The translations under genes were made by a program, and so were the position numbers. Positions 26,369-45,484 of a stretch of DNA of 64,000 nucleotides are shown here, piece by piece. The notes under the pieces are model-generated. The model worked only from the letters and a program-made list of their open reading frames with translations, was not told the DNA's origin and ran no database searches. Within the stretch, counting starts at the first letter, position 1; each line of letters begins with the position of its first letter. Source of the stretch: Candidatus Woesebacteria bacterium GW2011_GWF1_31_35 (GTDB lineage: Bacteria > Patescibacteriota > Microgenomatia > UBA8517); contig CP011214.1 in the NCBI GenBank assembly GCA_001029755.1, positions 273,564 to 337,563 on the forward strand. Reading direction: 5' to 3'.

Positions 26369-27046
26369 ATGGAAAATCAAGATATTCAAAACCCAACTCC
26401 AGAATCAACCTTAACTCCAGTACAAGTTTCTGAACCAAGAGCCAAATTCCCTGTCGTGTACTTAGTTTTGTCTTTATTTGTTCTTGTACTTTTAGCTTCG
26501 ACGGTGTTTCTTTATTATCAAAACATACAACTCAAAAATATGCTTGCTAGCTACCAAACTCAGCCTGTAGTTTCACCTACCCCAACCACATATCAATCTC
26601 CAATTCCATCAACCACGGCGGACCTAACCGCCAATTGGAAAATATACACTGATAGCAAAGTGGGTTTCAGCCTAAAATATCCGAATGGGTGGTCTTACAA
26701 ACTAGGTGATACAAATTCGACTACTGGCAATGTAATCTTTGACACAAATTTGGCAAGTGGCAACAAAAATACGAATTATATATTTGATGTTAGTCTCGAG
26801 ACTATGGACAATCTAAACCAGTGGACAAAATATTCAACAACAACAGCTCTCGGTTCTCAGACGGTAAATGGATTGTCTTTTGAAAAATATGTCGTTGCTG
26901 ACATGTATTATTCATTGAATTACATTCTTAAACAAAACGGAAAAATTCTTCGATTCCTTTTATACCCGTATGATTCTAATCAATATCCGACAGAGCTAAA
27001 AACCAATATTGATCAAGTCCTCTCCACTTTTAAATTTATCAATTAA
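26369..27046 (+). CDS. Membrane-anchored extracytoplasmic protein, paralog family member 1 (conserved C-terminal [DN]Q[IV]LSTFKFI)
   Basis: 225 aa. Short cytoplasmic N-terminus, one TM, Pro/Thr linker, ~130-aa C-terminal domain (WKIYTDSKVGFSLKYPNGW ... DQVLSTFKFIN). Paralogs at 39185..39910 and 44771..45484. Confidence 0.4.
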   Translation: MENQDIQNPTPESTLTPVQVSEPRAKFPVVYLVLSLFVLVLLASTVFLYYQNIQLKNMLASYQTQPVVSPTPTTYQSPIPSTTADLTANWKIYTDSKVGFSLKYPNGWSYKLGDTNSTTGNVIFDTNLASGNKNTNYIFDVSLETMDNLNQWTKYSTTTALGSQTVNGLSFEKYVVADMYYSLNYILKQNGKILRFLLYPYDSNQYPTELKTNIDQVLSTFKFIN

Positions 27047-27087
27047 GTTTTGACCAGCCATTTAAGTCTTAATGAAGCTGAACTTGG

Positions 27088-27107
27088 TATATTAAGTGCC
27101 AACTGGC
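27088..27107. repeat. Repeat A copy 3: the authentic 3' flank and last nucleotides of tRNA-Asn
   Basis: TATATTAAGTGCCAACTGGC overlapping the 3' terminal GCCA of tRNA-Asn (27104-27107). Confidence 0.6.
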
Positions 27108-27179
27108 TCCCCCGGTAGGACTCGAACCTACAACCTTATTCTTAACAGGAATCTGCTCTGCCATTGAGCTACAGGGGAT
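27104..27179 (-). tRNA. tRNA-Asn (anticodon GTT), CCA encoded
   Basis: Minus strand: acceptor TCCCCTG/CGGGGGA, D arm GCTC-AATGGCA-GAGC, anticodon loop CTGTTAA, T arm GTAGG-TTCGAGT-CCTAC, 3' GCCA. Confidence 0.8.
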
Positions 27180-27248
27180 TATTAATGTACAAACGTGATT
27201 ATATCAATTAAGGCCACTTTTTGAAACAGTGATATAATAATTTTTTAT

Positions 27249-28412
27249 ATGTGGCTAACAGAAGAATTAAATAATCTAAAAAAATCAGGACTTTATAATA
27301 ATATTTTAACCATAGAAAGTCCTATTGGGGGAGAGATAATAATTGAAGGAAGGAAACTACTTAATTTTTGTTCTAATAACTATTTAGGTCTTGCAAATAA
27401 TCCTCGTCTTAAAAAAGCAGCAATCGCTGCAATTAATAAGTTTGGTGTTGGTCCTGCTGCAGTTAGAACAATTGCAGGAACTACTACTTTACATAAAAAA
27501 CTTGAAAAAGACTTGGCAAAGTTTAAAAAGTGTGAAGCTGTTCTTACCTTTCAAAGTGGTTTCATGGCAAATTTAGCTACAATTCCTGCTTTAGTTGGTG
27601 AAGGAGACTTGATTTTTTCGGATGAACTTAATCATGCCAGTATTATTGATGGTTGTAGAATCTCAAAAGCTACAGTTATTCGTTTTAAACACGCAGATAC
27701 TGTTGATTTAGAATCTTTACTTAAAAAAGCTTCTAAAAAAGTTAAGAAACTAGTAATTACTGATGGAGTATTTTCAATGGATGGAGATATTGCACCCTTA
27801 GATAAAATTTATAAAGTAACTTCAAAATATGGAGCACTTTTAATGGTTGATGATGCACATGGTGAGGGAGTATTAGGTAGAAATGGTAGAGGAATTGTTG
27901 ATCATTTTAATCTTCATGGAAAAGTTGATATTGAAGTTGGAACAATGAGTAAAGCCCTTGGAGTTGTTGGAGGTTTAGTTGCTGGTAAAGGTGAAATTAT
28001 AGAATGGTTAACCCAGCGCGCTAGACCATTTCTTTTTTCTTCAGCTATGACAATTCCTGATGTCGGAGCCTGTATTGAAGCTGTAAAAATTTTAGGAAGC
28101 TCCGGCGTCTTAGTTAAAAAACTTTGGAGTAATGCGGATTATTTAAGTAAAGGTTTAAGTAGATTTGGGTTTGATACAGGTAAAAGTCAAACTCCCATAA
28201 TTCCTTTAATGTTGGGGGAAGTTACTTTGGCAAAAGAATTTAGTAATTTACTTTTTGAAAACGGAGTATTTGCAAAAGCAATTGGCTATCCGACAGTTCC
28301 AGAAGGGAAAGCAAGAATTAGAATAATGAATACTGCGGTTCACACCAAAAAAGACCTTGATAAAGCTCTTTTGGTTTTTGAAAAAGTAGGTAAAACTTTA
28401 AAAGTAATTTAA
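27249..28412 (+). CDS. Pyridoxal-phosphate-dependent glycine C-acetyltransferase / 8-amino-7-oxononanoate synthase family enzyme (Kbl/BioF-like)
   Basis: 387 aa. [21 protein letters not shown]...[15 protein letters not shown] and the PLP-lysine region GTMSKALG. Confidence 0.7.
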
Positions 28413-29365
28413 CATCTTACATTAGCTCCACAATTCTGACAATTAGATATTAGTTGTCCAGATGGTCTTCTGTTAGTTGCACCACAACTTGGACAGGGAA
28501 ATTCTAAGGATCCATATTCATCTGAATATCCAAATGCAAGTGTTTGTGTTTCAGTATTTAGGCCATTTGTATTTAAAAGAGTGATATTTGATTTTCCACA
28601 TCCTGATTTTTCAAGATTCATTCCAAATCCTGCTTTTTCCATTTCTGTCTCAATATAGGCTCCATATTCAAATGGATTACTATAAATTACTGATAGGTTT
28701 TTCATAATTGGTTTATTTACAATAGTAGCTTTTTTTAAAGCTTTGGCTTTATTTTTGACAGCTGTTCCATCTAAAATACTTTGAAAAATTTCTTTTTCTG
28801 GTAATTTGATTATTTCAGACAGATAACTAAAAGGATCTTTCTCTGGTGGTATTTCTAATTTAATTACAATTGATTTTAAATCATCTAAATTTTGTGGAAA
28901 TAGATAATTATTTGAAGAAACAGATACAAGCAGTTGACCAAGTTTTAAACAATCATCTTTTGACAAAGTTGTACTTATTCCATAAGATTCAAAATATTCA
29001 AATTTTTTGCTTTTAGTAATTCTTTTTGCACCTATGTCAATTCTTGTTTCAGGCCAAGGATTTGGTGGACTAATCCAAACATAAGCAAAATTTTCGGTAT
29101 CTTCAAGAAGGAGTTTTCTTATTTCTTCACCAGCAGGAGTTAGAGGATCGTTTCTTACAAACATTTCTGAAACATCTCTTCTATCTATTCCTGGAGCAAT
29201 AACTTTATTTCTCTCTCTTTTTATATAATGATGTGGATTCACTCGTGGATTTCCAGTGTTTGAAGCTTCAATAACAAGAGAAGCTGTGTCATTATTTAAG
29301 GAAGCCAATTTCTGGGGAGTATCGTATCTTCTTAGATCTAGTGCAATAAATTGTTCTTTTGACAT
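28409..29365 (-). CDS. Hypothetical soluble protein with C-terminal double-CxxC zinc ribbon, preceded by a cobalamin-riboswitch-like leader
   Basis: 318 aa. C-terminus [28 protein letters not shown]. No other motif I recognise. Confidence 0.35.
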
Positions 29366-29445
29366 ATTTTCCTGCTCGGGTTTTAGTGGGTTCTGGGTTT
29401 ACAGTAGCGGCACTCCCACGGAATTTCACCGTGATTCACCAAATT
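29366..29445 (-). ncRNA. Candidate cobalamin (B12) riboswitch in the 5' leader of the 28409..29365 gene
   Basis: The minus-strand RNA reads GGUGAAAUUCCGUGGGAGUGCCGCUACUGUAAACCCAG...GAGCAGGAAAAUAUG. This matches the cobalamin-riboswitch core GGUGnAAnUCC...CCGCCACUGUAA (B12 box, one mismatch) and the 3' GCCAGGA-like element adjacent to the start codon. The segment is locally GC-rich. Confidence 0.45.
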
Positions 29446-29507
29446 TATTAACACATTACAGTTTATGTTACACTTTTTGTAAAGGGGTAATTTGAAATAA
29501 AAGGGGG

Positions 29508-29693
29508 GTGAATAAAGATATGAAGAAAAAAGATTCAGCTAAACTTTCAAAATTTTTAATGATAGGTGCTTTATTAGGGGTAATGTTTTCCTTTATAGGC
29601 TATTTTGGATTAGATATTTGGCTTGCATCAACTCAGTGGTTATTAGTTTCTGCGGTAATGGCTCTTTTTGGAGTTTATTTGAAGCTGACTTGA
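29508..29693 (+). CDS. Small two-TM membrane protein
   Basis: 61 aa, hydrophobic; weak call. Confidence 0.2.
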   Translation: MNKDMKKKDSAKLSKFLMIGALLGVMFSFIGYFGLDIWLASTQWLLVSAVMALFGVYLKLT

Positions 29694-29777
29694 GGCTAGC
29701 GGTAATCATGCGGAGAATATACGGTAATTACTCTTAAACTTGACATCTATTAGTGGTTAGGAGTATTTTTAGAGCAC

Positions 29778-30263
29778 ATGAAATCTAGCAGGAAAGACAT
29801 TGTTATTGGTTTTATATTAATTATTGCTTTAGTTGGTGGAATTTTCTTTTACAAAAATTTAAAAACTCCAAAAGTACTTCCAACTTCCACTCCATTAACA
29901 ATTAAATCAAAGATTGAAGGACTATTTAATTATGTTATCCCTGATGATTTGGATTCAATAGAACTTAAAGATGTTACTGGGGGAATATATAGAGGAATTG
30001 CTGCAAGAAAATTTGAAAAAAGAATCTTTACAATTACAGTATTAGCTGATCTACCAGATTTATCTTCAAATGAATTTTATGAAGGATGGGTATTTTCAGG
30101 TGATAAGTTTATTTCAATTGGAAAATTAAGAATTGCTAAGGGTGGATTTTTAGTTGATTTTACTTCAAATACTGATTATTCTTCTTACAATAAAGTTACT
30201 GTTACTAAAGAAAAGGTTAATGATAATAAACCTGAGAGCCTAATTCTTGAAGGATCTTTTTAA
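29778..30263 (+). CDS. Hypothetical N-terminally membrane-anchored protein
   Basis: 161 aa, one TM; no motif I recognise. Confidence 0.3.
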   Translation: MKSSRKDIVIGFILIIALVGGIFFYKNLKTPKVLPTSTPLTIKSKIEGLFNYVIPDDLDSIELKDVTGGIYRGIAARKFEKRIFTITVLADLPDLSSNEFYEGWVFSGDKFISIGKLRIAKGGFLVDFTSNTDYSSYNKVTVTKEKVNDNKPESLILEGSF

Positions 30264-30388
30264 ACTTTCTTTCTTGAGGTAAGATTATATTAATGAAAAA
30301 GTTCACTTTCATTCTAATACTTGGGATACTCTTCATTTCTTTTGCTATTTTTTTTCTTAATATTTATATTAAGGGGGTGGGTAGGTAA

Positions 30389-30631
30389 ATGCGGGTTACT
30401 ATATATTCAACTACAACATGTCCTTATTGTAAAATGTTAAAGGATTATTTAATTAGTAAAAATGTATCTTTTACTGAAAAGTTAGTAGATCAAGATGATT
30501 TAGTTAGAAATGAAATGGCAACTGAATCTGGTGGATTTTTAGGTGTTCCTTTTACTGTCGTTACTAAAGATGATAATACAAAAGAAACCATAATAGGGTT
30601 TGATAAAGGTAAAATAGATTCGATTATTTAA
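30389..30631 (+). CDS. Glutaredoxin-like protein (NrdH/Grx family)
   Basis: 80 aa. IYSTTTCPYCKMLKDYL CxxC thioredoxin-fold motif. Confidence 0.7.
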   Translation: MRVTIYSTTTCPYCKMLKDYLISKNVSFTEKLVDQDDLVRNEMATESGGFLGVPFTVVTKDDNTKETIIGFDKGKIDSII

Positions 30632-31291
30632 ATGATATTTGTAAATTTTAAAACCTATGAAAGTGGAACTGGTGGGAAAGCTTTATTGCTTTCAAAAATT
30701 ATTGAAGAAGTTTCAAAAGAATCTGGAGTTAAAATTATTCCAGTGGTTCAATCTTCTGATATAAAAGAGATTGCTTCAACTGTTTCTATTGAAGTTTGGA
30801 CACAAAAAATTGATCCAGTTGAGTTTGGTGCCCACACAGGGTCAATTATTCCAGAAGCAGTCTTTGAAGATGGTGCGATTGGAACATTTTTAAATCATTC
30901 AGAGAATAGATTTAATGATTTTGAATCCTTAGCCAAAGCTCATGATAGAGCAAAAGAAGTTGGACTTAAAACTTTAATTTTTGCTAAAGATTTAGAAGAA
31001 TTAACAAAAGTAAGTTCTTTAAAACCTGATTACATTTCCTACGAACCACCAGAATTAATTGGAAGTACTGATATCTCAGTTGCAACAGCCAAACCCGAAA
31101 TTATTCAAAAAGCTTCTGAAATATCAAAACAGGTTGGGATTCCTTTAATTGTTGGTGCTGGAGTACACTCTTTTCAGGATGTTAAAAAATGTTTAGAATT
31201 AGGAGCTGTTGGTATTGCTGTTGCATCAGACATTATGAATGCAGAAGACCCCAGAAAAGAACTCTTGGATTTAGTAGAAGGATATAGATAA
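30632..31291 (+). CDS. tpiA: Triosephosphate isomerase, short archaeal-type
   Basis: 219 aa. FLNHSENRF (catalytic His/Glu region), a size typical of archaeal TIMs, within the glycolytic cluster. Confidence 0.55.
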   Translation: MIFVNFKTYESGTGGKALLLSKIIEEVSKESGVKIIPVVQSSDIKEIASTVSIEVWTQKIDPVEFGAHTGSIIPEAVFEDGAIGTFLNHSENRFNDFESLAKAHDRAKEVGLKTLIFAKDLEELTKVSSLKPDYISYEPPELIGSTDISVATAKPEIIQKASEISKQVGIPLIVGAGVHSFQDVKKCLELGAVGIAVASDIMNAEDPRKELLDLVEGYR

Positions 31292-31296
31292 ATAAT

Positions 31297-31746
31297 ATGA
31301 AAATTTTTACAGGATCAGATCATAGAGGATATCTTTTAAAAGAAAAGGTAAATTCTTGGGTTTTTGATTTAGGTTATACTTTTGAAGATGTTGGGCCTTT
31401 AATAATTGATCCATTTGATGATTTTACAAAATATGTAAGTGAAGTAGCATCGTTGGTTGCAAATACAAAAGGTTCAAGAGGGGTGGTTCTTTGTGGGAGT
31501 GGGGTAGGAGCTGATATTTTAGCCAATAAGTTTGACGGAATTAGGGCTTCAATTGGAAAAGATAAAAACCAAATAAAAAAGGGTAGAAGTGATGATGATA
31601 TGAATGTATTAGTTTTAGCTGCAGATTTTACTAAAGATGAAGAAGCAAAAGAGATGTTAAAGGCATTTTTAGATACAAAATTTAAAGGTAAAAGTAGATT
31701 TAAGAGAAGGCTCAAAGAAATAGAAAAAATAGAAGCAAATAATTAA
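31297..31746 (+). CDS. rpiB: Ribose-5-phosphate isomerase B (RpiB/LacAB family)
   Basis: 149 aa. GSDHRGY, VLCGSGVGADILANKFDGIRAS. Confidence 0.75.
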   Translation: MKIFTGSDHRGYLLKEKVNSWVFDLGYTFEDVGPLIIDPFDDFTKYVSEVASLVANTKGSRGVVLCGSGVGADILANKFDGIRASIGKDKNQIKKGRSDDDMNVLVLAADFTKDEEAKEMLKAFLDTKFKGKSRFKRRLKEIEKIEANN

Positions 31747-31750
31747 ATTT

Positions 31751-31999
31751 TTACTTCAAACCTTTAATATCTGGACAATCATTTTGATCACAGTTAGGTT
31801 GTCTACATTCCATTGGACCAATATCTCTTGCAGTGAGAAAACTACAAAGCCCATTTTCAAATTTTTGTATTAAATCACCAGCGATATTAACACCAATAAT
31901 TTGAACATTTTCATTATTAAATTGTTTTTGAGTATTTAAAATTCCTTTTTCAATATCTCTTCTAGAGCTAACCTTGGATCTGTGTATACATTCTTTCAT
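31751..31999 (-). CDS. Hypothetical Cys-containing small protein
   Basis: 82 aa; no motif I recognise. Confidence 0.25.
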   Translation of the reverse strand: MKECIHRSKVSSRRDIEKGILNTQKQFNNENVQIIGVNIAGDLIQKFENGLCSFLTARDIGPMECRQPNCDQNDCPDIKGLK

Positions 32000-32058
32000 T
32001 TTGCGCGATTTTATCCTGTGTGTGTGAATGTCAATATCAGAGGTGATATTATTAAATA

Positions 32059-33018
32059 ATGCTTAATTTGCCCAAACTTACTGATTTAGATATTTCAAAT
32101 AAAAAAGTAATACTTCGACTTGATTTGGATTTAAAAGAATTTGACCCTAATGATTTAAGAATTAAGGCTTCGATTAAAACACTTGATTTTTTAAAAGAAA
32201 AGAACTGTCAAATTACAATAATCGCTCATAGAGGTAGGCCCGATGGAAAATTTGATCAAAGTTTAAGTTTTAAGGAATTCAGAAGCTATTTTAATAAATG
32301 GAATGCTAAGGTAGAAGAAAACTTAAGATTTGAGAGAGGTGAAGAAGAAAATAATATAGAATTTGCAAAAAAATTAGCTACATTAGGTGAAGTTTTTGTA
32401 AATGAAGCTTTTGCAAGTTCTCACAGAAATCATGCATCAATTGTTAGTCTTCCAAAACTTTTGCCTCATGCTTTTGGATTTAGGTTTATAGAGGAAGTGG
32501 AAAATTTAACTAAAGTTTTTGATAATCCCAAAAGGCCTGTAGTTACACTTTTAAGTGGTCTTAAAGAGGATAAATTAAAATATTTAGATGGATTAGAAGC
32601 TATTTCTGACAAAGTTTTAGTAGGAGGAAGACTACCTGATCTTTTAGGAGATAATACTTTAAGTGTTAGAAACCAAGAGGGTAAAGTTATAATTGGAAAC
32701 TTAGTAATGGATAAGGAAGATATAACAGTTAATACTATTGAAAGATTTGAAAAAGAAATTATAGGTGCTGGAACAATACTTCTTTCAGGACCTTTAGGTA
32801 AATTTGAAGAAGAGGGACATAGACAGGGGACTGAGAGGATCTTTAAAGCAATTTCCGCCTTACCTTCTTTTAAAGTTGCTGGTGGTGGAGAAACTGAAAA
32901 AGCAATTAACTTACTTAAAATCAGTGACAAGTTTAATTGGATTTCAGTTGGGGGTGGAGCTTTCTTAGAATTTTTAGTAAATAAAACATTACCTGGAATT
33001 AAAGCCTTTGATAATTAA
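32059..33018 (+). CDS. pgk: Phosphoglycerate kinase (unusually short)
   Basis: 319 aa. N-terminal KKVILRLDLDL...IIAHRGRP (PGK substrate-binding motif) and C-terminal GGGAFLEFLVNKTLPGIKAF. About 70 aa shorter than typical PGK. Confidence 0.65.
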   Translation: MLNLPKLTDLDISNKKVILRLDLDLKEFDPNDLRIKASIKTLDFLKEKNCQITIIAHRGRPDGKFDQSLSFKEFRSYFNKWNAKVEENLRFERGEEENNIEFAKKLATLGEVFVNEAFASSHRNHASIVSLPKLLPHAFGFRFIEEVENLTKVFDNPKRPVVTLLSGLKEDKLKYLDGLEAISDKVLVGGRLPDLLGDNTLSVRNQEGKVIIGNLVMDKEDITVNTIERFEKEIIGAGTILLSGPLGKFEEEGHRQGTERIFKAISALPSFKVAGGGETEKAINLLKISDKFNWISVGGGAFLEFLVNKTLPGIKAFDN

Positions 33019-33060
33019 CGTGCTATTATTAATTGATGGGGAAAGAAGGTGATAAATTAA

Positions 33061-33258
33061 ATGAAATTAAAAACAATTTCTAAATGGTTGGTTTTAATAG
33101 GTGCAGTAGAAATAGGATTAATGGGTATTATGAGTTTTGATCTAATAGGAAGTTTATTAGGTAGCTGGCCATTAGTAGTAAGAATAGTTTATGTCTTAAT
33201 TGGTTTCGCTGGTTTTTGGGGAATCTATGCGACCCTTACAAATAAGAAGAAAAGATAA
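33061..33258 (+). CDS. DUF378-like small two-TM membrane protein
   Basis: 65 aa. Two TM helices and a basic C-terminus. Confidence 0.35.
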   Translation: MKLKTISKWLVLIGAVEIGLMGIMSFDLIGSLLGSWPLVVRIVYVLIGFAGFWGIYATLTNKKKR

Positions 33259-33375
33259 ACCAATAGATATTCTCATATATAGTTAATTATACGCGATGGA
33301 TTTTTTTTGATTTAAAAGATATTATGTTATATATACTGCCCGTGGTAAGAAAATCTTACCATAGGGCTTAAGCCT

Positions 33376-34443
33376 ATGGTAAAAGTTGGAATAAATGGTT
33401 TTGGTAGAATTGGAAGATTAGCTTTCAGAATTGGTGTTACTAAACACTCGGACGAATTGACTTTTTCAGCAATAAATACTTCAGGAAGTATGCCTCCATC
33501 AGGTTGGGCACAACTAGTTAATTTCGATACTATGTATAGAAAATTTGAATATGAAGTTAAAAGTGATGAAACTTCTATTTCAATTCCAGAAAGGGGAATA
33601 AGTGTTCCAATTTTGGCAGAAAAAGATCCCGGTTTAATTCCTTGGGGAAAATATGGTGTTGAAGTTGTAATTGAAGCAACCGGAAAATTTACTTCTGAAG
33701 AAGATGCTAAAAAGCATGCATTAGGAGGGGCTAAAAGAGTAGTTATTTCAGCTCCTGCAAAGGGAGATAATGTAGGAACCTATGTGATAGGAGTTAATGA
33801 AACAAGTAAAGATGCTGTGATTCTATCAAATGCTAGTTGTACTACAAATTGTGTTGCCCCTGTTGCTGCCGTAATGCATGCAAAATTTGGAATTGAAAAA
33901 GCAATGATGACTACGGTTCATAGTTATACAGATGACCAAAATTTACAAGATGGATCGCACAAAGATTTAAGACGAGCTAGGGCAGCTGCTTGTAATATAG
34001 TTCCAACAACAACTGGAGCAGCAATTGCAACAACTGAAACCATACCAGATCTTAAAGGAATCTTTGACGGAATGGCTTTAAGGGTTCCAGTTGCAACCGG
34101 ATCCATAACTGATTTTACATTTCTTTTAAAGAAAGATGTGACAGTAGAAGAGGTAAATAATGCATTTAAAGAAGCATCAACAAACCCCATATATAAGGAT
34201 ATTTTGGCTGTTTCTGAGGGATTTTTAGTATCATCAGATATTATAGGAAGAAGTGAATCGGCAATTGTTGATTTGCCATTAACGCAAGTAGTTGCAGGAA
34301 ATATGGTCAAGGTTTTTGCATGGTATGACAATGAATGGGGGTATGCAAACCGTTTAGTAGAACAGGTAATTAGAGTAGGAAGAACACTAGAAGGTGGAAT
34401 AGCTCCAACTGACCCATTAACTCTAAGTCATACAAATGGATAA
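33376..34443 (+). CDS. gap: Glyceraldehyde-3-phosphate dehydrogenase
   Basis: MVKVGINGFGRIGR and ASCTTNC (catalytic Cys), full length. Confidence 0.9.
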   Translation: MVKVGINGFGRIGRLAFRIGVTKHSDELTFSAINTSGSMPPSGWAQLVNFDTMYRKFEYEVKSDETSISIPERGISVPILAEKDPGLIPWGKYGVEVVIEATGKFTSEEDAKKHALGGAKRVVISAPAKGDNVGTYVIGVNETSKDAVILSNASCTTNCVAPVAAVMHAKFGIEKAMMTTVHSYTDDQNLQDGSHKDLRRARAAACNIVPTTTGAAIATTETIPDLKGIFDGMALRVPVATGSITDFTFLLKKDVTVEEVNNAFKEASTNPIYKDILAVSEGFLVSSDIIGRSESAIVDLPLTQVVAGNMVKVFAWYDNEWGYANRLVEQVIRVGRTLEGGIAPTDPLTLSHTNG

Positions 34444-35056: not shown

Positions 35057-35085
35057 ATTTTAGTTTATTTTTATATTTAATATTC

Positions 35086-36942: not shown

Positions 36943-36944
36943 AA

Positions 36945-37223
36945 TTAATAAGCTCCACCTTTAAAATCGGGGTAATTCAATTTATACCAATTCATTGCTT
37001 CTTTACTACAATCATTCTTTACTGTCTCAATTGTAGGCATACAATCTATCCAGCCACCTTCAGGACAAGAATATGATGATACTTTAGGTTTATTGGTTGG
37101 AAGTATTTTGACTATTTTATTTTTTGGGTATACGAAAAAGAGAGCAACTAAGGTAGAAAGTAAAACTAAGATGGAGAGTAAAATGATCAAAAATTTTTTA
37201 TCACCACTAGAGTTTTTACTCAT
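36945..37223 (-). CDS. Small membrane-anchored Cys-containing hypothetical protein
   Basis: 92 aa, one TM. Confidence 0.25.
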   Translation of the reverse strand: MSKNSSGDKKFLIILLSILVLLSTLVALFFVYPKNKIVKILPTNKPKVSSYSCPEGGWIDCMPTIETVKNDCSKEAMNWYKLNYPDFKGGAY

Positions 37224-37246
37224 AATGTCATTATAATGTATATCAT

Positions 37247-38209: not shown

Positions 38210-38211
38210 AT

Positions 38212-39204
38212 ATGAGTAATCTTGATTTACTTTCTGTAGGAGATGCTAATTTAGATGCATTTATTACACCTTCTGAATCAGAATCTCTTTGTGACATTAA
38301 TACTAAGGAGTGTCTAATTGCTTTTTCGTATGCAGATAAAATTCCTGTTAAAAATTTAGAATTTTCTGTTGGTGGAAATGCTGCAAATAATTTAGTTGGA
38401 ACTAAAAGATTAGGAGTTAATTCTGGTGCAGTACTAACCTTGGGGGATGATAGTACAGGAGTCCAAATTATTGAAAAATTAAGGCAGGAGAGTGTTGACT
38501 TAACCTATGTTATTCAACAACCATCGACGCTTTCAAACTTTAATATGGTAATTTCATATACAGGGGAGCGAACAATTTTTACATATCATGCCCCAAGATC
38601 ATATGAATTTCCAGTAAATCTACCTAAAGTTCCTTGGATGTATTTAACTTCGATGGGAGAATCTTTTAAACCTTTCTATAATCATATAACTGAGTGGTTA
38701 GTTAAAAATCCAGAAACTAAGCTTTCCTTTAATCCAGGAACTTGGCAATTAAGAGGTGGAATTGATGCAATTGAAAATGTATTTAAACTTTCTACTTTGG
38801 TTTTTGTAAATAAACAAGAAGCAGAGAAACTAACAGGATTTGAAGCTAAAGATAAAGTTACTAAAGAACTTCTAATGGCCCTTTCAGGATTGGGACCAAA
38901 AATAGCAGTTATTACTGATGGTGGAAACGGATCATTTGTTTTTGATGGTAATAGATTTTTACACTGTGGAATACTTCCGGTTGATGCATATGAAAGAACT
39001 GGAGCAGGAGATGCTTTTGGATCAGGATTTTTGTCAGCTGTAATCAAAGGCAAAACTTTAGAAGAAGCTTTAATTTGGGGAACAGTTAATTCAGCTTCAG
39101 TTATTGGTTATACAGGAGCACAAAGAGGATTATTAACAGAAGATGATATGAGTACATGGGTTGACAGGGCAAAATCTTCGGGAGTTATGGTTGAGGAGAT
39201 GTAG
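38212..39204 (+). CDS. PfkB-family carbohydrate kinase (ribokinase-like)
   Basis: 330 aa. GGNAANNLV and C-terminal GAGDAFGSGFLSAVIKG. Confidence 0.7.
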   Translation: MSNLDLLSVGDANLDAFITPSESESLCDINTKECLIAFSYADKIPVKNLEFSVGGNAANNLVGTKRLGVNSGAVLTLGDDSTGVQIIEKLRQESVDLTYVIQQPSTLSNFNMVISYTGERTIFTYHAPRSYEFPVNLPKVPWMYLTSMGESFKPFYNHITEWLVKNPETKLSFNPGTWQLRGGIDAIENVFKLSTLVFVNKQEAEKLTGFEAKDKVTKELLMALSGLGPKIAVITDGGNGSFVFDGNRFLHCGILPVDAYERTGAGDAFGSGFLSAVIKGKTLEEALIWGTVNSASVIGYTGAQRGLLTEDDMSTWVDRAKSSGVMVEEM

Positions 39205-39910
39205 TTGGTTCGGATTCAATAAACTTAATAGTAGATAGAATTTGATCAAAAACTTGAAAAAGATTTGGATCCTCTGTGCCTAGTTGGAAATAGTATCGTA
39301 TTCCATTATGGTCAAGCAAAACAAAAATTAGGTTTGGTCCTTTAAGGATTATTGATTTTTCCCCACCAAGTTCTGACTCAAATTTTTCTGTTCCAGGTTC
39401 TGCTCCAGGTTGGTTTAGTCTGTATGTTGCGTCTTGATCGAGTGATTTTTCTGGATTTTCATAAGAAAAAAGATAGAGGGTGGCAATCAAACCCTCTACC
39501 TCAACACTTTGGGAGCTGGGGTTGTCTACTGGGTAAGATATCCACGATCCATATCCACCATCGGGGGACCCTAATACTTCTTTGTGTGTATACCATTTTT
39601 CGGGTAATGCAATCGAGAGCCCTATTTTTGAGAAAATATGGACTTTCCAATCTGTAGTTGGATCTGTTGTTGGTATTGGTTCAGTCGATGTAATCGGAGT
39701 AGGGATAACCTGTAATTTTGTAATTTCTTTAACTAAATTTTGTGTTTGATATGCAAAAAAACCTGCAATTAAAACAGAAATGATAAGTAAAATTGAAAGT
39801 AAAATTACTAAAAAGCTACTATTTTTTTTAGGTTCAGCTGTTTCCATTTTTTGTGCTGGTTCTATTTGTGGTGTTGGTGTTTGTGTATTTGTGGTTATAT
39901 TTTGTTCCAT
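39185..39910 (-). CDS. Membrane-anchored extracytoplasmic protein, paralog family member 2 (C-terminal DQILSTIKFIE)
   Basis: 241 aa. Same architecture as 26369..27046 and 44771..45484 (cytoplasmic tail, TM, Pro/Thr linker, conserved W.....GLSIALPEKW and C-terminal motif). Confidence 0.4.
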   Translation of the reverse strand: MEQNITTNTQTPTPQIEPAQKMETAEPKKNSSFLVILLSILLIISVLIAGFFAYQTQNLVKEITKLQVIPTPITSTEPIPTTDPTTDWKVHIFSKIGLSIALPEKWYTHKEVLGSPDGGYGSWISYPVDNPSSQSVEVEGLIATLYLFSYENPEKSLDQDATYRLNQPGAEPGTEKFESELGGEKSIILKGPNLIFVLLDHNGIRYYFQLGTEDPNLFQVFDQILSTIKFIESEPTTSPQP

Positions 39911-39947
39911 GCTTTAATAATAACATAGGAAATGTTAAATTTAATGT

Positions 39948-40934
39948 ATGAAAGTCTTTGTAACCAGAAAAATTCCTGGAGAATCTCTTGAAGAACTTAA
40001 AAAAAATAATTTTGAAGTTACTGTCTCAGAATTTGATAGACCATTAACTTCTGAGGAACTTTTAGAAAAATCAAAAGGAGTTGATGCACTTCTCTGTCTT
40101 TTAACAGACAAAATTGATGGTGATTTAATGGATGCAATTGGACCACAACTTAAAATTATTAGTAACTATGCAGTTGGTTTTGACAATATAAACATTGCTG
40201 ACGCAACTGATCGTGGAATTGTTGTTACTAATACCTCATGTGTAGAAGTAGATGAAGCAGTAGCTGAACACACTTGGGCTTTAATTGCATCACTTACTAG
40301 AAGAATAGTTGAGGCAGATGAAACAACCAGAAGGGGAGCATTTAAGGGTTGGGAACCAAATATATTTTTAGGAGTTTCTTTAATTGGAAAAACCTTAGGA
40401 ATTATTGGTTTAGGAGGAATTGGGACCATGGTAGCAAGACGAGCAATAGGCTACAAGATGAATGTTATTTATAACAAAAGGAAAAGAGACGAAGAAGCAG
40501 AAAAAAATCTAGGAGTTAGATATTCCGACTTAGATACACTCTTTAAAGAAAGTGATGTTGTCACACTTCATGTTCCATTAACAGATGAAACTAGGCACAT
40601 GATTAATAAAGAAACTCTTAATAAAATGAAAAAAGGAAGTTTTTTGGTTAATACTGCAAGAGGACCTATTGTTGATGAACATTCCTTAGTTGAAAGTTTA
40701 AAAGATGGACATTTAACTGGTGCTGCACTAGATGTATTTGATAACGAACCAAATATAGACCCAGAACTTATTGGTATGCCAAATGTTATTACAACCCCAC
40801 ACATTGCATCTGCAACACATGAAGCAAGGGAAGCAATGGGAAAATTGGCAGTTTCAGCAATTTTAGAAACTTTTTCTTCTAAGGAACCTATTAATATTGT
40901 TAATAAAGAGGTTTGGGAAAAAAGGAGAAAATGA
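39948..40934 (+). CDS. D-isomer-specific 2-hydroxyacid dehydrogenase (glyoxylate/hydroxypyruvate reductase-like)
   Basis: 328 aa. NAD-binding GIIGLGGIGTMVARRA and a catalytic His region (TPHIASAT). Confidence 0.8.
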   Translation: MKVFVTRKIPGESLEELKKNNFEVTVSEFDRPLTSEELLEKSKGVDALLCLLTDKIDGDLMDAIGPQLKIISNYAVGFDNINIADATDRGIVVTNTSCVEVDEAVAEHTWALIASLTRRIVEADETTRRGAFKGWEPNIFLGVSLIGKTLGIIGLGGIGTMVARRAIGYKMNVIYNKRKRDEEAEKNLGVRYSDLDTLFKESDVVTLHVPLTDETRHMINKETLNKMKKGSFLVNTARGPIVDEHSLVESLKDGHLTGAALDVFDNEPNIDPELIGMPNVITTPHIASATHEAREAMGKLAVSAILETFSSKEPINIVNKEVWEKRRK

Positions 40935-41926
40935 TATTTTCAAGAGGAAAGGATGCTGATTTTGAAGATGAAGTTGAGGAAGAAGAGATTCCTAAGAGAA
41001 AATTTAGAGATTTAAGACCAGAAAACCGTAGAGCTCGTAAAGAACCTCCAAAGCCGTGGGGTAAAAAAGAAAGATTAATTGTTTTAATAATACTTTTAGT
41101 TACAGTATTAACTTCAGGAATATTAGCTTTAACTGCAAGAAATTTTAAATTACCAAATTTTCCCAAAATTGGCATTCCGAATCTTTCTAATTTTAATATT
41201 TTTAAAGAACAGGTAATAATTGTGGGGAATAAGGGGACAAAGGTAAACTTAGCTAAAATTGAAAACACCAAAAAACAATTTAAAAGTTTAACTGATGATT
41301 ATTCAGGAATTTATGCATTTTATATCTATGATCTAAATGGAAATTATTTTTATGGAGAAAATTATCAAGAAAAAATGCAAGCAGCATCATTAATTAAACT
41401 GCCTGTAATTTACTTAACATACCTAGAAAGTCAAAAAGGAAACCTTGATATAAATGAATATAGGTCTTACTTAGAAGCAATGGGTAAAAGATCAGATAAT
41501 CAAGCTTTTATAAAAATGGTTTCTATTTTAGGCAAAGAAAATATTAATAAAGCAATAATTAATCTTGGAATGAGTAAAACCTCTTTAGAGGAAAATATTA
41601 CAACACCTGAAGATATCGGTTTGTTTTTTAAGAAACTAAAAAATTATGAAATTTTAAATAAAGAAAATACAGATGAATTTTTAGAATTTTTAACTGATAC
41701 TTCTTTTGAAAAATGGCTAAGACCAGGAATACCATCTGAAATTAGACTTGCCCATAAATATGGTAGAGAAGTACATGCAGTAAATGATGCTGGGATAGTT
41801 TTTAGTGATAAACCTTTTGTTCTTGTAATAATGACTGATGGAGTAGTAGAAAGTGAAGCTGATAAAATATTTCCAGAACTTAGTAAATTATTGTATAATG
41901 ATCAAATAAATGAAAAAACCAATTGA
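40913..41926 (+). CDS. Serine beta-lactamase-like (class A / PenP-like) hydrolase with N-terminal TM
   Basis: 337 aa. SxxK motif (AASLIK) and a KYG region; overlaps the upstream gene by 22 nt. Confidence 0.45.
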   Translation: MGKKEKMIFSRGKDADFEDEVEEEEIPKRKFRDLRPENRRARKEPPKPWGKKERLIVLIILLVTVLTSGILALTARNFKLPNFPKIGIPNLSNFNIFKEQVIIVGNKGTKVNLAKIENTKKQFKSLTDDYSGIYAFYIYDLNGNYFYGENYQEKMQAASLIKLPVIYLTYLESQKGNLDINEYRSYLEAMGKRSDNQAFIKMVSILGKENINKAIINLGMSKTSLEENITTPEDIGLFFKKLKNYEILNKENTDEFLEFLTDTSFEKWLRPGIPSEIRLAHKYGREVHAVNDAGIVFSDKPFVLVIMTDGVVESEADKIFPELSKLLYNDQINEKTN

Positions 41927-42575
41927 GTACATAAAGGAATCTTGGACTATCTACACTAAAAGAGAAAATTTTCTATTTTTCTCAAAAGTCATGGCTATCC
42001 TTGTAATTGTTTCCACAGGTTTAAGTTATCTAATTAATTACCTTTATCCAATTAATGTCTGGAAAGATTTTAAGTTTGATAATACTCCAATGTTAGTTGG
42101 TTTTACTTTTTTAATGTTACTTTCAATCGTAATTGGATTCTGGGTTAAAACGGTAACCTATTTGGCTATCTTAACTAAACCTACTGATGATATAAAAACT
42201 TTCTTTAAAAAAGGATTAAAAAGTATTTGGAAGTTTTACTTAATTTCTCTAGTAATTGGAATATTGATATTTTTAGGAAGTTTACTATTAATTATTCCAG
42301 GGATTATTTTCGCGGTTTGGTTTTCCTTCTCAATCTTTTTAATTTTAGATAAAAATTTAAAAATTAAAGACTCTTTATTAAAAAGTAAGTCGTTAGTTAA
42401 AGGAAAGTTTTTAAAAATCTTTGGAAGATTTATTGTATTTGGTTTTGTGATCTTAATAATCCAAACCATATTAGGCTTAATTCCATATATGGGGACAATA
42501 TTAGTAAGTTTTCTGGCTCCTCTTTTTATACTTCCTTTCTATTTACTTTATAGAGATCTACTCGTTAGTAGTTGA
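41910..42575 (+). CDS. Polytopic membrane protein (unknown)
   Basis: 221 aa, about 5 TM helices. Confidence 0.3.
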   Translation: MKKPIEYIKESWTIYTKRENFLFFSKVMAILVIVSTGLSYLINYLYPINVWKDFKFDNTPMLVGFTFLMLLSIVIGFWVKTVTYLAILTKPTDDIKTFFKKGLKSIWKFYLISLVIGILIFLGSLLLIIPGIIFAVWFSFSIFLILDKNLKIKDSLLKSKSLVKGKFLKIFGRFIVFGFVILIIQTILGLIPYMGTILVSFLAPLFILPFYLLYRDLLVSS

Positions 42576-44732
42576 GGGGGCTGGTTCTAAAATTTTAGGG
42601 CAAGACAGTTGTTTTTCTTCTAAAAACCATTCCATTCTACTAAAACATTCTTTTTTTATTAATCCTTCTGGTGGAATCCAATTAACAGAATCTTTGTTAT
42701 TAAGTAGGCTTCTTGTAATTTTATTCCAAATTGGTGCAGCTCCTGTTATTCCTGAGGCAATTCTACTCATTGGTGTTCCATCATTATTTCCTACCCAAAC
42801 AGCAACTAAATAATCTTTATTAAATCCAATTGTTAAATTGTCTTTTAAGTCATTACTGGTTCCAGTCTTAACTGCAACTTCAGGATGGTTTGGAATAACC
42901 AACATAGAATTTAATCCAAACGATGGAGATCTTGCTATATTATCTTTAAGTACATCTATTAACAAAAATGCAACTCTTGGATCAAGAACTTTTAAATCTT
43001 CAACATTAAATCTACTCTCCTTTTGAGATAAGAGATTCTCTTTATAATTTTTAACTTCAGTAATTACTTTAATTTCATTTTTAACTCCCATATTTGCAAT
43101 AACAGAATAAACTTGTGCTAAATCTACTAATTTTACTTCTCCTCCACCCAGTGTTAATGAAAGGCCAAATCTAGATCTATCGGTCCAGGTAGTAATTCCC
43201 ATTTTTTCACCCAGATCAATCATCTTACTAACCCCGTAGGAAGCCAATATTTTAACTGCTGGAATATTTCTAGATTCAGCTAGAGCTGATCTTACTGAAA
43301 TCTTACCTCTATAAGTTCCATCATAGTTTTTGGGAGTGTAAGGAGGAAGTCCAGAAACTGAAAAAGTTATTGGAGAATCATCAATAGTTGAGGCAAGTGT
43401 TAAACTATTTGACAAGCTTAAAGCATAGTTTATTACTTTTATTGAAGAGCCAGGTTGTCTTAATCTTGTTGTAACATTTACATTTCCTCCGTTTTTTGTA
43501 TCAAAATAATCTTTACTTCCAACCATGGCTAATACCTCACCATTTTTAGGATCAACTACTAAAACAGCTGCATTTCCTACGTTTAAATTTTTAAGTTTTT
43601 CTAACTCTTCTTTAACTACTTTTTCAGCCATTTCCTGGATTTTAAGATCAAGAGTAGTTGTAACAATTAAACCTCCTTTTAAAACCATTTCTTCACCATA
43701 TTCATCAATAAGTTTTTCTCTAACATACATTACAAAATGGGGGGCTTTGATGTCAGTTTTATTAGGAGCAAAAGTAATTCTTTCTGATAAAAAAACCTCT
43801 TCTTCTTCGGAAGTTATAAACTTGTTAACTCTCATTAGGTGTAAAACTTCTCTTTGTCTTGAAAAAGTTAGATCAGGATTTGGTCCAAAAGGGGAATATC
43901 TGGTAGGACTTTGGGGAAGCCCTGCTAATAGTGCTGACTCTGAAAGAGTTAGACTCCCAACATCTTTTCCAAAATAAAGTCTGGCTGCTTCTTGTATTCC
44001 ATATGCAGTACCTCCATAAGAAACTTCATTTAGGTACATTTCCAGTATTTGGTCTTTAGAAAAATTTAATTCAACACCGATTGATAAAATTAATTCTCTT
44101 AATTTTCTAACATATGTTTTCTCAGATGATAAAAGTGCGTTTTTAACAAGCTGTTGGGTTATGGTTGAGCCACCATTAAGTTTTCCTTCCTTAAGATTTT
44201 TAATTGAAGCTCGAATTATTCCTCTAATTGAAAAGCCGGGATGTTGATAAAATTCAGCATCTTCTGCGGCTAAAGTTGCAAGTCGTGTATTTTCTGGTAT
44301 TTGGGATAGAGTTACTGGAGTCCTGTTTTTATCTTTGTAGATGGTATATAAAAGTTCACCGTTTCTATCATATATTTTTGTAGAAACTGATTGTTCTCTG
44401 GTAATTAAGTCTCTAGGGGAGGGAAGGCCTTTTAAAACTAAAAAGTAGAAGGTAAAAGAAAAAACTAATAGAAAAATAAAAGGCAATAATAATCTTTTTT
44501 TAATTTTAAATTTTGGTAATTTAACACTAACTTTAGGAATAGAAATTTTAATAGGTTTTAATTTTATTTTAAAAGTTAAATTAATAATTCGTCCTATTGC
44601 ATAGAAAATAAAGATAGTAGCTATTAAAATATGGGTTAGGCAAAAATAAAAAGGTTTACCTACAACAATTAAGATTTTAGTAAGTAAACTAAAGGCAGTG
44701 GTGGTTTTTTTAATTTTTCCAGCCACAGGCAT
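42558..44732 (-). CDS. Class A penicillin-binding protein (PBP1-type glycosyltransferase + transpeptidase)
   Basis: 724 aa. GT51 motifs (EDAEFYQHPGF; GGSTITQQLVKN) and transpeptidase SSIK, SxN, KTG. Confidence 0.85.
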   Translation of the reverse strand: MPVAGKIKKTTTAFSLLTKILIVVGKPFYFCLTHILIATIFIFYAIGRIINLTFKIKLKPIKISIPKVSVKLPKFKIKKRLLLPFIFLLVFSFTFYFLVLKGLPSPRDLITREQSVSTKIYDRNGELLYTIYKDKNRTPVTLSQIPENTRLATLAAEDAEFYQHPGFSIRGIIRASIKNLKEGKLNGGSTITQQLVKNALLSSEKTYVRKLRELILSIGVELNFSKDQILEMYLNEVSYGGTAYGIQEAARLYFGKDVGSLTLSESALLAGLPQSPTRYSPFGPNPDLTFSRQREVLHLMRVNKFITSEEEEVFLSERITFAPNKTDIKAPHFVMYVREKLIDEYGEEMVLKGGLIVTTTLDLKIQEMAEKVVKEELEKLKNLNVGNAAVLVVDPKNGEVLAMVGSKDYFDTKNGGNVNVTTRLRQPGSSIKVINYALSLSNSLTLASTIDDSPITFSVSGLPPYTPKNYDGTYRGKISVRSALAESRNIPAVKILASYGVSKMIDLGEKMGITTWTDRSRFGLSLTLGGGEVKLVDLAQVYSVIANMGVKNEIKVITEVKNYKENLLSQKESRFNVEDLKVLDPRVAFLLIDVLKDNIARSPSFGLNSMLVIPNHPEVAVKTGTSNDLKDNLTIGFNKDYLVAVWVGNNDGTPMSRIASGITGAAPIWNKITRSLLNNKDSVNWIPPEGLIKKECFSRMEWFLEEKQLSCPKILEPAPSTTNE

Positions 44733-44770
44733 ATTATATCAAATTATGGGATAAAGTGGATATGAGAAAG

Positions 44771-45484
44771 TTAATCTGTTAATTTAAAAGTTGAGAGGAT
44801 TTGGTTTATTAAAGATTCCTGTGGCTCATTTGATGTAAAATCTGAAGTATTAAAATTAATAACGTAGTTTTTATTTGTGGTAATTAAATAGTTACTTAAG
44901 CCAGTACTTTGTAATTTAAAATAAACAGGATCTTGAGATGCCCAAACAAAATTGTTATTTTTAATATTAAGATTAACAAAACTTACGTATTTACTAATAC
45001 TTTGTGGATCTTGAGGGTCAATCTGTCTCAAAAAGTAATCTTTAGTAGGATATTTGTCACCATTATATCCAATAATAACTGTGATAGCTTTGTTTTGATC
45101 GATTAAAGTAAACGTTGTGTTAGTAGTATCTCCTAGAATTTTAGTGTTATTTGGGTAACGAAATGAGAAACCATATTTATCACTTGTATACATCTTTGTA
45201 TTTATATTTGGTTCAGGAGTTGTGTTTGGTGTAATTGTAGGTTCAATTTGGACAACTGGAGTCGGAGTTGAAGTACCTACTGTTTTTAATTCTGTTAGTT
45301 CCTTTGTTAATTTCTGTGTTTGAAATATTAGAAAACCTATTATAGTTATAGAAACAAACAAAAGAATTGATAATAAAATAGTTAGAAAATTACTTTTTTT
45401 GGGTTTTTCTGGTGTTACCATCTGTTGGTTATCAACTACAGGTATTGTTGATGTTGCTGGTATTGTAGATATTTGATTTTCCAT
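44771..45484 (-). CDS. Membrane-anchored extracytoplasmic protein, paralog family member 3 (C-terminal NQILSTFKLTD), between the two PBP genes
   Basis: 237 aa. Same architecture and conserved motifs (YTSDKYGFSFRYPNN ... QILSTFK) as the other two family members. Confidence 0.4.
   Translation of the reverse strand: MENQISTIPATSTIPVVDNQQMVTPEKPKKSNFLTILLSILLFVSITIIGFLIFQTQKLTKELTELKTVGTSTPTPVVQIEPTITPNTTPEPNINTKMYTSDKYGFSFRYPNNTKILGDTTNTTFTLIDQNKAITVIIGYNGDKYPTKDYFLRQIDPQDPQSISKYVSFVNLNIKNNNFVWASQDPVYFKLQSTGLSNYLITTNKNYVINFNTSDFTSNEPQESLINQILSTFKLTD

Follow-up and report, generated by a model that had tools for sequence, protein, structure and literature searches.

Three paralogs with a common membrane anchor

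In the 64,000-nucleotide stretch of Woesebacteria DNA (candidate phyla radiation, CPR) analysed here (the window), the three open reading frames claimed by an earlier sequence-only reading as a paralog family are all present (Table 1). Their strands, left out of that reading, are plus for copy 1 and minus for copies 2 and 3. Copy 1 precedes a tRNA-Asn gene, copy 2 is flanked by PfkB and 2-hydroxyacid dehydrogenase genes and itself lies on the opposite strand, and copy 3 lies between two class A PBP genes.

Table 1. Genes, RNA, repeats and conserved DNA motifs discussed in the text (positions in the window)
Feature	Position	Strand	Remarks
Copy 1	26369..27046	+	225 aa; cytoplasmic tail 1-28, TM/juxtamembrane helix 29-64, Pro/Thr linker ~65-85, PsbP-like ectodomain ~86-225
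Copy 2	39185..39910	-	241 aa
Copy 3	44771..45484	-	237 aa
92-aa ORF	36945..37223	-	HMM match to the family anchor only
PBP_A, class A PBP	45509..47719	-	Transgly 2.8e-61, Transpeptidase 1.2e-21; upstream neighbour of copy 3
PBP_B, class A PBP	42558..44732	-	Transgly 2.9e-60, Transpeptidase 4.5e-19; downstream neighbour of copy 3
C-terminal motif DNA of copy 1 (CAAGTCCTCTCCACTTTTAAATTT)	27014..27037	+	instance of the nucleotide-conserved core CAAATCCTCTCCACTTT
Copy 3 equivalent of the CAAATCCTCTCCACTTT core	44787-44800	-	
tRNA-Asn(GTT)	27104..27178	-	ARAGORN; Rfam 63.5 bits
Direct repeat, ~25-31-nt unit (TATATTAAGTGCCAACTGGC), three copies	24759-24789, 26197-26227, 27077-27107		repeat search and alignment
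112-nt repeat, two copies	24232-24343, 26223-26334		

Copies 2 and 3 share the architecture of copy 1, which carries an anchor of the YYQNxQLKNMLASYQ type; copy 2 has an additional C-terminal ESEPTTSPQP tail. Hydropathy analysis identified a single strongly hydrophobic 19-mer per protein (KD 2.7-3.1, residues ~29-54), with two to three K/R within the 15 residues preceding it in all three proteins. In the AF2 models of copies 1 and 3 the TM segment forms one long helix (residues 29-64 and 33-68, respectively), followed by a disordered Pro/Thr linker. Both sequence and AF2 models fit a bitopic type II protein, with a single, presumably uncleaved hydrophobic helix and positive charge on its N side, and an N-in/C-out topology is predicted for the family proteins.

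The similarity among the copies is not a low-complexity artefact, because pairwise BLASTP remains significant under composition adjustment (E 2e-10 for copies 1 and 2, 9e-13 for copies 1 and 3, and 1e-18 for copies 2 and 3). It comes from the anchor and linker, from the first hairpin and from the final ~12 residues, and the ~100-aa cores alone display no significant pairwise similarity (z from -0.5 to 1.8, 500 shuffles). These divergent cores and the low-complexity linkers are what could be said for unrelated ORFs that merely share an AT-rich, Pro/Thr-rich composition; this reading is refuted by BLASTP E values on the order of 1e-10 to 1e-18, by homologues numbering in the hundreds to thousands, by the one fold common to the confident AF2 models and by ectodomain-only comparisons (z ~9 for copy 1 against copies 2 and 3), and we give it practically no credence. 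BLASTP, hydropathy and AF2 thus support the claim of a membrane-anchored extracytoplasmic paralog family with a conserved C-terminal motif. Taken literally, the N-terminal motif of that reading has no exact match in any of the three proteins. The C-terminal pattern fits copies 1 and 2 and fails in copy 3, where the end reads KL instead of KF.

A fourth ORF, at 36945..37223, is similar to the family in its anchor (E 8e-7 and 3e-8) and continues into a small Cys-rich ectodomain (CPxGGWxDCMP...NWY..N.PDFKGGAY), which recurs in other genomes as a C-terminal extension of family proteins (P0004, P0042 and P0047). It sits at the aldolase-transketolase junction, where many relatives hold a family gene.

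A divergent PsbP-type ectodomain

The ectodomain, which the sequence-only reading did not recognise, was resolved by profile searches and structure models as a divergent PsbP/Mog1-type binding fold. The models have the alpha-beta-alpha sandwich of the Mog1/PsbP-like superfamily, in which a central antiparallel sheet is combined with a hairpin at the N-terminus and a helix at the C-terminus, and their structural similarity to PsbP or Mog1 is significant. The two motifs noted earlier mark the structural ends of this fold: one corresponds to the first beta-hairpin, the other to the terminal helix with the last strand, and the sheet and loops between them would be free to vary.

The corresponding Pfam family is PsbP_2 (PF18933, 'PsbP-like protein'), whose gathering cut-off is 27 bits. 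Copies 1 and 3 score below it (15.3 and 21.7 bits, respectively), and copy 2 had no match to PsbP_2 in the Pfam HMM search. The profile of the copy 2 ectodomain aligns with the copy 1 subfamily at an hhalign probability of 96.8% (E 2.8e-10). Among 82 family members, 44 match PsbP_2 at E<=0.01 (best E 1.8e-12), and representatives from an exhaustive search pass the Pfam cut-off; for example, P0222 matches PsbP_2 at 2e-63 (214 bits), PsbP at 3e-34 and DcrB at 3e-15. Since these homologues reach the cut-off, the window proteins belong to PsbP_2 by transitive homology rather than by direct score. A family profile also aligned with CyanoP (2lnj), weakly but along the full length of the ectodomain, with both motifs covered. 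The best PDB match of the full-length profile, the PAC channel, was rejected as an artefact of the TM helix, and the ectodomain-only profile (A6) yielded only weak spurious matches to PDB sequences, such as HPF.

No NCBIfam model covers the window proteins, and with the PSII_PsbP model the score is 14.1 bits where 60 would be required, so that at the equivalog level they are not photosystem II PsbP. No photosystem genes were found in the window, and CPR bacteria are not known to be phototrophic. The literature was searched for PF18933 and for PsbP in CPR or Patescibacteria, which gave no relevant match.

Exhaustive searches yielded 26,152 family representatives with a threshold of E<=1e-3, of which 8,106 remain at E<=1e-10; many representatives carry two to six tandem domains. 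Judged from these sequence searches, the family is very large, and the window contains only a minute part of it.

Gene neighbourhoods at the PBP genes and the tRNA-Asn gene

Copy 3 is indeed co-oriented with the two class A PBP genes that flank it, at gaps of 24 and 38 nt. No terminator-like site was found between copy 3 and the PBP genes, and a promoter scan around it scored at the level of shuffled sequence and was uninformative. In this operon-like arrangement, co-transcription of copy 3 and the PBP genes is probable; the sequence-only reading had taken the arrangement to suggest a cell-envelope or PBP-accessory role. According to the accessory scenario, copy 3 and the family genes found at the same junction would bind one or both flanking PBPs and regulate them, the tethered ectodomain acting like LpoA/LpoB or MacP. 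Besides the tight spacing, several observations agree with it: the identical arrangement in the same strain from another sample (L089), a family gene between the PBP genes in L001, L028, L030, L034, L042 and L046, and the fold itself, a protein-binding module with an envelope biogenesis role for some members (LpqN, DcrB).

However, linkage to the PBP genes is not conserved. Among 65 related loci holding both PBP genes, the two are directly adjacent in 50, including four of the five closest relatives of the window (L005, L006, L007 and L013), whereas the fifth (L008) has a PIN toxin-antitoxin pair at this junction. Family genes lie between the PBP genes in five of the 65 loci, in one to six copies, none of them an orthologue of copy 3, and other inserts are found in ten, among them four PIN toxin-antitoxin pairs, including that of L008. 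A PBP_A tree (single-gene NJ, no support values) shows a patchy occupancy of the junction, with family genes in at least four separate places, some as arrays of five to six. Searches with the copy 3 ectodomain alone returned only four homologues, all on contigs shorter than 2 kb, leaving limited room for testing the synteny of true orthologues; the nearest ones from other organisms have no PBP gene on the readable flank. At 61-62% identity, a Bro-N protein is encoded upstream of one such homologue (L087) and another family gene downstream of a second (L088). In the examined locus sample, moreover, the family is commoner at glycolytic-gene junctions than between PBP genes. A junction that takes from zero to six non-orthologous family members, as well as unrelated inserts, makes an accessory role distinctly unlikely. 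The position of copy 3 is best read as an insertion hot spot rather than a conserved partnership, and copy 3 is unlikely to be a dedicated, conserved PBP cofactor. The recurrence of family genes at this junction could nevertheless reflect selection for co-expression with the PBPs rather than mere permissiveness.

Across Woesebacteria, the backbone gene order is kept and family genes sit at three variable junctions. This distribution suggests that gain, loss and amplification of these genes take place where a gene order that is otherwise rigid has a few permissive junctions.

Copy 1, with the tRNA-Asn gene 58 nt downstream, had been described as cargo of a tRNA-Asn islet. One copy of the TATATTAAGTGCCAACTGGC repeat (27077-27107) takes in only the CCA end, approximately the last 6 nt of the tRNA, plus downstream sequence, and the repeats spanning 24759..27107, together with the 112-nt repeats, bracket copy 1 and a neighbouring anchored protein (24820..25860). 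Rfam searches of the 23.9-27.4 kb region found the tRNA only; the 112-nt repeat is therefore not a known RNA. In L092 and L145, the tRNA-Asn gene lies next to the aminotransferase gene without a family gene, and relatives sharing this arrangement have a serine-recombinase element at the tRNA instead of copy 1; in L092 it comprises a large serine recombinase, an AAA_25 protein and a primase zinc-ribbon protein. The islet description is thus supported in part: repeats that take in the tRNA 3' end flank copy 1 and relatives lack the gene, but no integrase or recombinase was found between 19.4 and 27.1 kb of the window.

Mosaicism, possible function and known relatives

Family genes are mosaic in both directions: anchors with 81-85% identity are paired with cores of ~20% identity, and cores with 70-75% identity are paired with anchors of 27-47% identity. 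For example, copy 1 and L003 have 82-93% nucleotide identity across codons 1-80 and 33-47% beyond them. The three window copies share no long DNA repeats and hence show no sign of recent gene conversion inside this genome. At the 3' end, the CAAATCCTCTCCACTTT motif is conserved at the nucleotide level, including synonymous sites, and rare codons are kept. Within the window it occurs in family genes only, and it is absent from viral contigs. Two explanations of this conserved DNA were rejected, a -1 frameshift site, as the heptamer pattern is out of the reading frame, and a DNA uptake sequence, as the motif is confined to family genes in the window.

We tentatively propose, as a possible but rather doubtful scenario, that the 5' anchor module and CAAATCCTCTCCACTTT serve as homology arms of a cassette-exchange system swapping PsbP-fold cores, which would be undescribed in CPR. 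Exchange among paralogs and between Woesebacteria genomes would generate a diversified surface-protein repertoire at a few hot spots. If mosaicism and synonymous-site conservation do reflect such exchange, the genes would serve as a tractable marker for surface variation and for recombination among uncultured episymbionts, and the PBP-PBP and glycolytic junctions would be defined hot spots for metagenomic time series.

To our knowledge, every characterised member of the fold binds a protein or an envelope lipid or ligand (PsbP/CyanoP, Mog1, Tsi3/TplEi, LpqN, DcrB), and because all of them act by binding, the paralogs are likewise predicted to be binding modules. We conclude, with reasonable but not strong confidence, that the window genes are divergent members of a bitopic PsbP-fold family expanded in Microgenomates, encoding tethered binding modules of an accessory envelope repertoire. 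The signal-anchor and flexible Pro/Thr stalk would hold one Mog1/PsbP-fold (PsbP_2-type) domain on the outer side of the cytoplasmic membrane, so that each paralog may be a membrane-tethered module with its own ligand. The family would form part of a variable, presumably accessory, envelope repertoire, evolving by ectodomain-cassette exchange behind the conserved 5' anchor module. With this reading, a large set of CPR envelope proteins so far called 'hypothetical' gains a fold and a family (PsbP_2, Mog1/PsbP), and a tempting, unsupported link to peptidoglycan synthases is removed.

Two other functions were considered besides such accessory binding modules. As immunity-like decoys, comparable to Tsi3 and Tli4/TplEi, tethered PsbP-fold proteins would neutralise exogenous envelope-targeting toxins (peptidoglycan hydrolases, lipases) and pile up as diverse orphan arrays. 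No cognate effector genes adjoin any window copy, the neighbours being PBP genes, glycolytic enzymes and a tRNA, nor did the related loci show effector-like genes; we consider this role unlikely. As housekeeping helpers in envelope biogenesis or lipid handling, their ligands would be lipids or precursors at the membrane surface, as for LpqN or DcrB. That role predicts conserved orthologues and stable synteny, yet the paralog cores are unrecognisably diverged and presence differs among close relatives, which leaves it very unlikely.

The logic of the proposed cassette exchange is comparable to that of pilin or Vlp/Vsa-type variable surface-protein systems. The PBP cofactors LpoA, LpoB, LpoP and MacP resemble copy 3 as small membrane-anchored envelope proteins, copy 3 adjoining class A PBP genes. 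Compared with Pfam PsbP_2, the three window proteins fall under the gathering score, and the hallmarks of their branch are the conserved signal-anchor and Pro/Thr stalk, the near-invariant DQILSTFKF end, a mosaic mode of evolution and a 3' motif conserved at the nucleotide level. PsbP/CyanoP (2xb3, 2lnj) and PnsL1 are lumenal extrinsic subunits of photosystem II and NDH, whereas the window proteins use a TM anchor instead of a lipoprotein or transit signal, in a neighbourhood encoding only enzymes of glycolysis and the pentose-phosphate pathway. With the T6SS immunity proteins Tsi3 (4luq_C), TplEi/Tli4 (5h7y) and PA3488 (7wdk_B) they share 6-16% sequence identity. Finally, mycobacterial LpqN, MTC28 and Apa and enterobacterial DcrB are lipid-anchored via a lipobox Cys and encoded by conserved single-copy genes, whereas the window proteins have a predicted uncleaved TM helix without the Cys and belong to a shuffling multigene family.

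A PsbP-like ectodomain on a membrane anchor

All three family genes (copies 1–3) are present as open reading frames exactly as listed in the table. Pairwise comparison of their products (BLASTP, composition-adjusted; E-values 9e-13, 2e-10 and 1e-18) confirms that they are paralogs, as the sequence-only reading had proposed. By hydropathy, each has a single strongly hydrophobic segment (KD 2.7–3.1 over 19 residues) preceded by 2–3 Lys/Arg; behind it come a stretch rich in Pro/Thr and then a ~140-residue ectodomain. What the three share lies mainly in the anchor, linker, first hairpin and final ~12 residues; compared on their own, the cores of ~100 residues have no significant pairwise similarity (z -0.5 to 1.8 versus shuffles). 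The motifs described earlier do exist, although only approximately: no copy contains the N-terminal pattern exactly, and the C-terminal pattern [DN]Q[IV]LST[FI]KF[IT] does not hold for copy 3, whose motif ends in KL instead of KF. When all ORFs of the window were searched with HMMs, no further full-length family member was found.

The ectodomain, which had not been recognized from sequence alone, is assigned a PsbP-like (Mog1/PsbP) fold by profile searches and structure prediction. The window proteins have only sub-threshold Pfam matches, to PsbP_2 (PF18933) and PsbP, and among 82 aligned family members 44 match PsbP_2 (best E-value 1.8e-12) and five match PsbP. The family profile aligns weakly with CyanoP Sll1418 (2lnj) across the whole ectodomain, placing the N-terminal motif block on YsDtkdGYeFlYPnGW and the C-terminal motif on lFDtvaSSF. 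In AF2 models of copies 1 and 3 (pLDDT 83.5, confident, and 72.4, acceptable), a long transmembrane/juxtamembrane helix leads through a disordered linker to a beta-hairpin and an antiparallel sheet, followed by a terminal helix with a short strand. The ectodomain profile of copy 2 matches that of the copy-1 subfamily with 96.8% probability. What is conserved, then, is the two structural ends of a fold that is already known; the blocks do not define a new domain.

An exhaustive search with a profile of the ectodomains only retrieved 26,152 cluster representatives with an E-value of 1e-3 or lower, 8,106 of them at E<=1e-10, so that the supposed three-member family, whose members are indeed related, makes up just a small part of a very large one. 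Many representatives carry 2–6 tandem domain copies, and the top ones pass the PsbP_2 cut-off, one of them scoring 2e-63 for PsbP_2, 3e-34 for PsbP and 3e-15 for DcrB. The family is annotated everywhere as hypothetical; named homologues come from Woesebacteria, Gottesmanbacteria, Microgenomates and CPR3.

Coordinates of the features discussed (L-numbers denote related loci)
Feature	Sequence	Coordinates	Strand	Evidence
Copy 1	window	26369..27046	+	ORF
Copy 2	window	39185..39910	-	ORF
Copy 3	window	44771..45484	-	ORF
92-aa ORF, family TM anchor and small Cys-rich ectodomain (CPxGGWxDCMP...PDFKGGAY)	window	36945..37223	-	HMM searches
82-aa ORF with Cys-rich end CRQPNCDQNDCPDIKG	window	31751-31999	-	
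346-aa anchored protein	window	24820..25860	-	
DNA for QILSTFKF motif	window; also loci L008-L088	27014-27037; 44787-44800	+; -	
Tandem class A PBP genes	window; also loci L005-L084	42558-47719	-	
PIN toxin-antitoxin pair between PBPs	L008; L035; L063; L064	10255-10925; 2279-2982; 10312-11007; 10224-10794		Pfam
Family gene arrays	L030; L046	10192-15128; 10324-16109		
tRNA-Asn(GTT)	window	27104..27178	-	
~25-nt unit with tRNA-Asn CCA end	window	24759-24789; 26197; 27077-27107		
Direct repeats around tRNA-Asn	window	24232-24343; 24759-24789; 25944-26000; 26197-26334; 27077-27107		
Integrated mobile element	L092	1-4901		
tmRNA, four tRNA-Ser, one tRNA-Arg	window	6391-10899		

Mosaic genes and a 3' motif with conserved codons

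When the 82 proteins were divided at the linker/hairpin boundary, anchors 81–85% identical to that of copy 1 were found on cores only ~20% identical, and cores 70–75% identical to that of copy 1 had anchors just 27–47% identical. Copies 2 and 3 display the same incongruence. In nucleotide sequence, copy 1 and the family gene of L003 are 82–93% identical over codons 1–80 and 33–47% identical thereafter. Rate variation alone is ruled out by the reciprocal nature of this incongruence, which indicates that ectodomain cassettes have probably been exchanged among family genes.

The 92-aa ORF has only the anchor in common with the family. Elsewhere, its Cys-rich module extends the C-terminus of family proteins (P0004, P0042, P0047 and in L027 and L046), fused after their PsbP-like domains, and appears to be a mobile module; the ORF suggests either shuffling of modules or loss of a PsbP-like domain by deletion. 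The 82-aa ORF lies on the opposite strand between the RpiB and PGK genes, and its Cys-rich end resembles the PDFKGGAY tail module; this ORF could be a further remnant located at a junction of glycolytic genes.

Family genes from different loci, 29 in all, encode the C-terminal motif Q-I-L-S-T-F-K-F as CAA ATC CTC TCC ACT TTT AAA TTT and keep it at synonymous sites with the rare codons CTC, TCC and ATC. CTC encodes Leu in 76% of motifs versus a background of 10% in the long ORFs of these loci, TCC encodes Ser in 72% versus 14%, and ACT encodes Thr in 83% versus 30%. The flanking codons are not conserved, and the N-terminal motif has a mild codon bias only. By comparison, the orthologous PBP_A genes of these loci use common codons at their conserved Leu/Ser/Thr/Ile columns, with a majority-codon share of at most 0.62. 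The far stronger bias of the motif indicates a probable nucleotide-level constraint. A recombination junction, a pause at conserved rare codons or an RNA element could account for it; in the last case, the pyrimidine tract CCUCUCC might pair with a Shine-Dalgarno sequence.

Chromosomal settings of the family genes

Copy 3 has the same orientation as the class A PBP genes on either side of it (PBP_A upstream, PBP_B downstream). Only 24 and 38 nt separate it from them, and there is no terminator-like site around it, an arrangement that makes co-transcription with both likely. The window PBP gene is 65–78% identical to those of Candidatus Woesebacteria and Microgenomates MAGs, and the G+C content of the window is 31.7%; with the named homologues, this places the source of the window among Woesebacteria-like CPR bacteria. 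A PBP-centred scan covered 80 Microgenomates loci, 65 of them with both PBP genes, and the backbone order is strongly conserved (large protein, DUF5667, Rce1-like, HEPN-like, PBP_A, PBP_B, unk221, beta-lactamase-like, 2-hydroxyacid dehydrogenase, PfkB, aldolase, transketolase). The tandem paralogous PBP pair, within a block that includes the DUF5667, Rce1-like, HEPN/RNase LS-like and beta-lactamase-like genes, is near-universal in Woesebacteria and related Microgenomates.

The co-oriented position had suggested a PBP-accessory role, but the comparison makes it unlikely that copy 3 is a dedicated PBP cofactor. The PBP genes are directly adjacent in 50/65 loci; five hold family genes between them (1, 1, 1, 2 and 6 copies) and ten hold other inserts. 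Synteny with the PBP genes is patchy: four of the window's five closest relatives (L005, L006, L007, L013) have adjacent PBPs, the fifth (L008) has a PIN toxin-antitoxin pair there, and none has a family gene at this position. Junctions occupied by family genes are scattered over four or more separate positions on the neighbour-joining PBP_A tree, and their occupants are different family members rather than orthologues of copy 3. Apart from identical sequences, the copy 3 ectodomain has homologues (61–62% identity) only on short contigs, where one adjoins a Bro-N protein and the other precedes a further family gene. Four of the ten other inserts are Pfam-confirmed PIN pairs from separate Microgenomates genomes, which argues for a general hot spot for accessory genes. 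We therefore regard the PBP|PBP junction as a permissive hot spot and the family as presumably accessory.

In L046, at least five family genes follow the PBP gene before the contig end. Tandem arrays of 5–6 diverse family genes lie between or after the PBPs in L030 and L046, where some members are two-domain and one has a Cys-rich tail. Two further junctions of the backbone hold family genes, namely 2-hydroxyacid dehydrogenase|PfkB (copy 2, as well as L005 and L008) and aldolase|transketolase (~20 loci and L085), where the window has the 92-aa Cys-rich ORF with the family anchor only.

Copy 1 ends 58 nt from the tRNA-Asn gene. A ~25-nt unit with the tRNA CCA end occurs three times, bracketing copy 1 and the neighbouring 346-aa protein; a 112-nt repeat nearby has 76% identity. 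Rfam identified no RNA family in these repeats, which may be remnants of serial integration. L092 and L145 (75% identity), found in an aminotransferase-centred scan, share the tRNA-Asn/aminotransferase arrangement without a family gene. In L092, the tRNA 3' end is directly flanked by genes for a large serine recombinase (Resolvase and Recombinase), an AAA_25 protein and a primase zinc-ribbon protein. These genes form an integrated mobile element where the window has copy 1, which points to the tRNA flank as an integration hot spot in the lineage. The earlier description of copy 1 as islet cargo is thus plausible from the repeats and the relatives lacking the gene, but unproven, since the window has no recombinase. 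The 346-aa protein resembles the family in overall architecture (one TM helix, a Pro/Thr/Ser linker, a Pro-rich tail), and its ectodomain has no match in Pfam, NCBIfam or the family HMM. Elsewhere in the window, a tmRNA gene and five tRNA genes cluster within ~4.5 kb.

The best-supported reading is that the copies are membrane-tethered Mog1/PsbP-fold proteins that would serve outside the cytoplasm as binding modules on a flexible stalk, forming part of a variable accessory envelope repertoire whose members may be renewed as cassettes are swapped at a small number of hot spots. The data show the fold, the architecture, the size of the family, its patchy synteny and its mosaicism; topology, binding function and accessory role are inferred. 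An immunity-like role and a PBP-accessory role are the rival readings, both unlikely. The three window genes are new members of a known fold family, to which mosaicism and synonymous-site conservation add the main interest.
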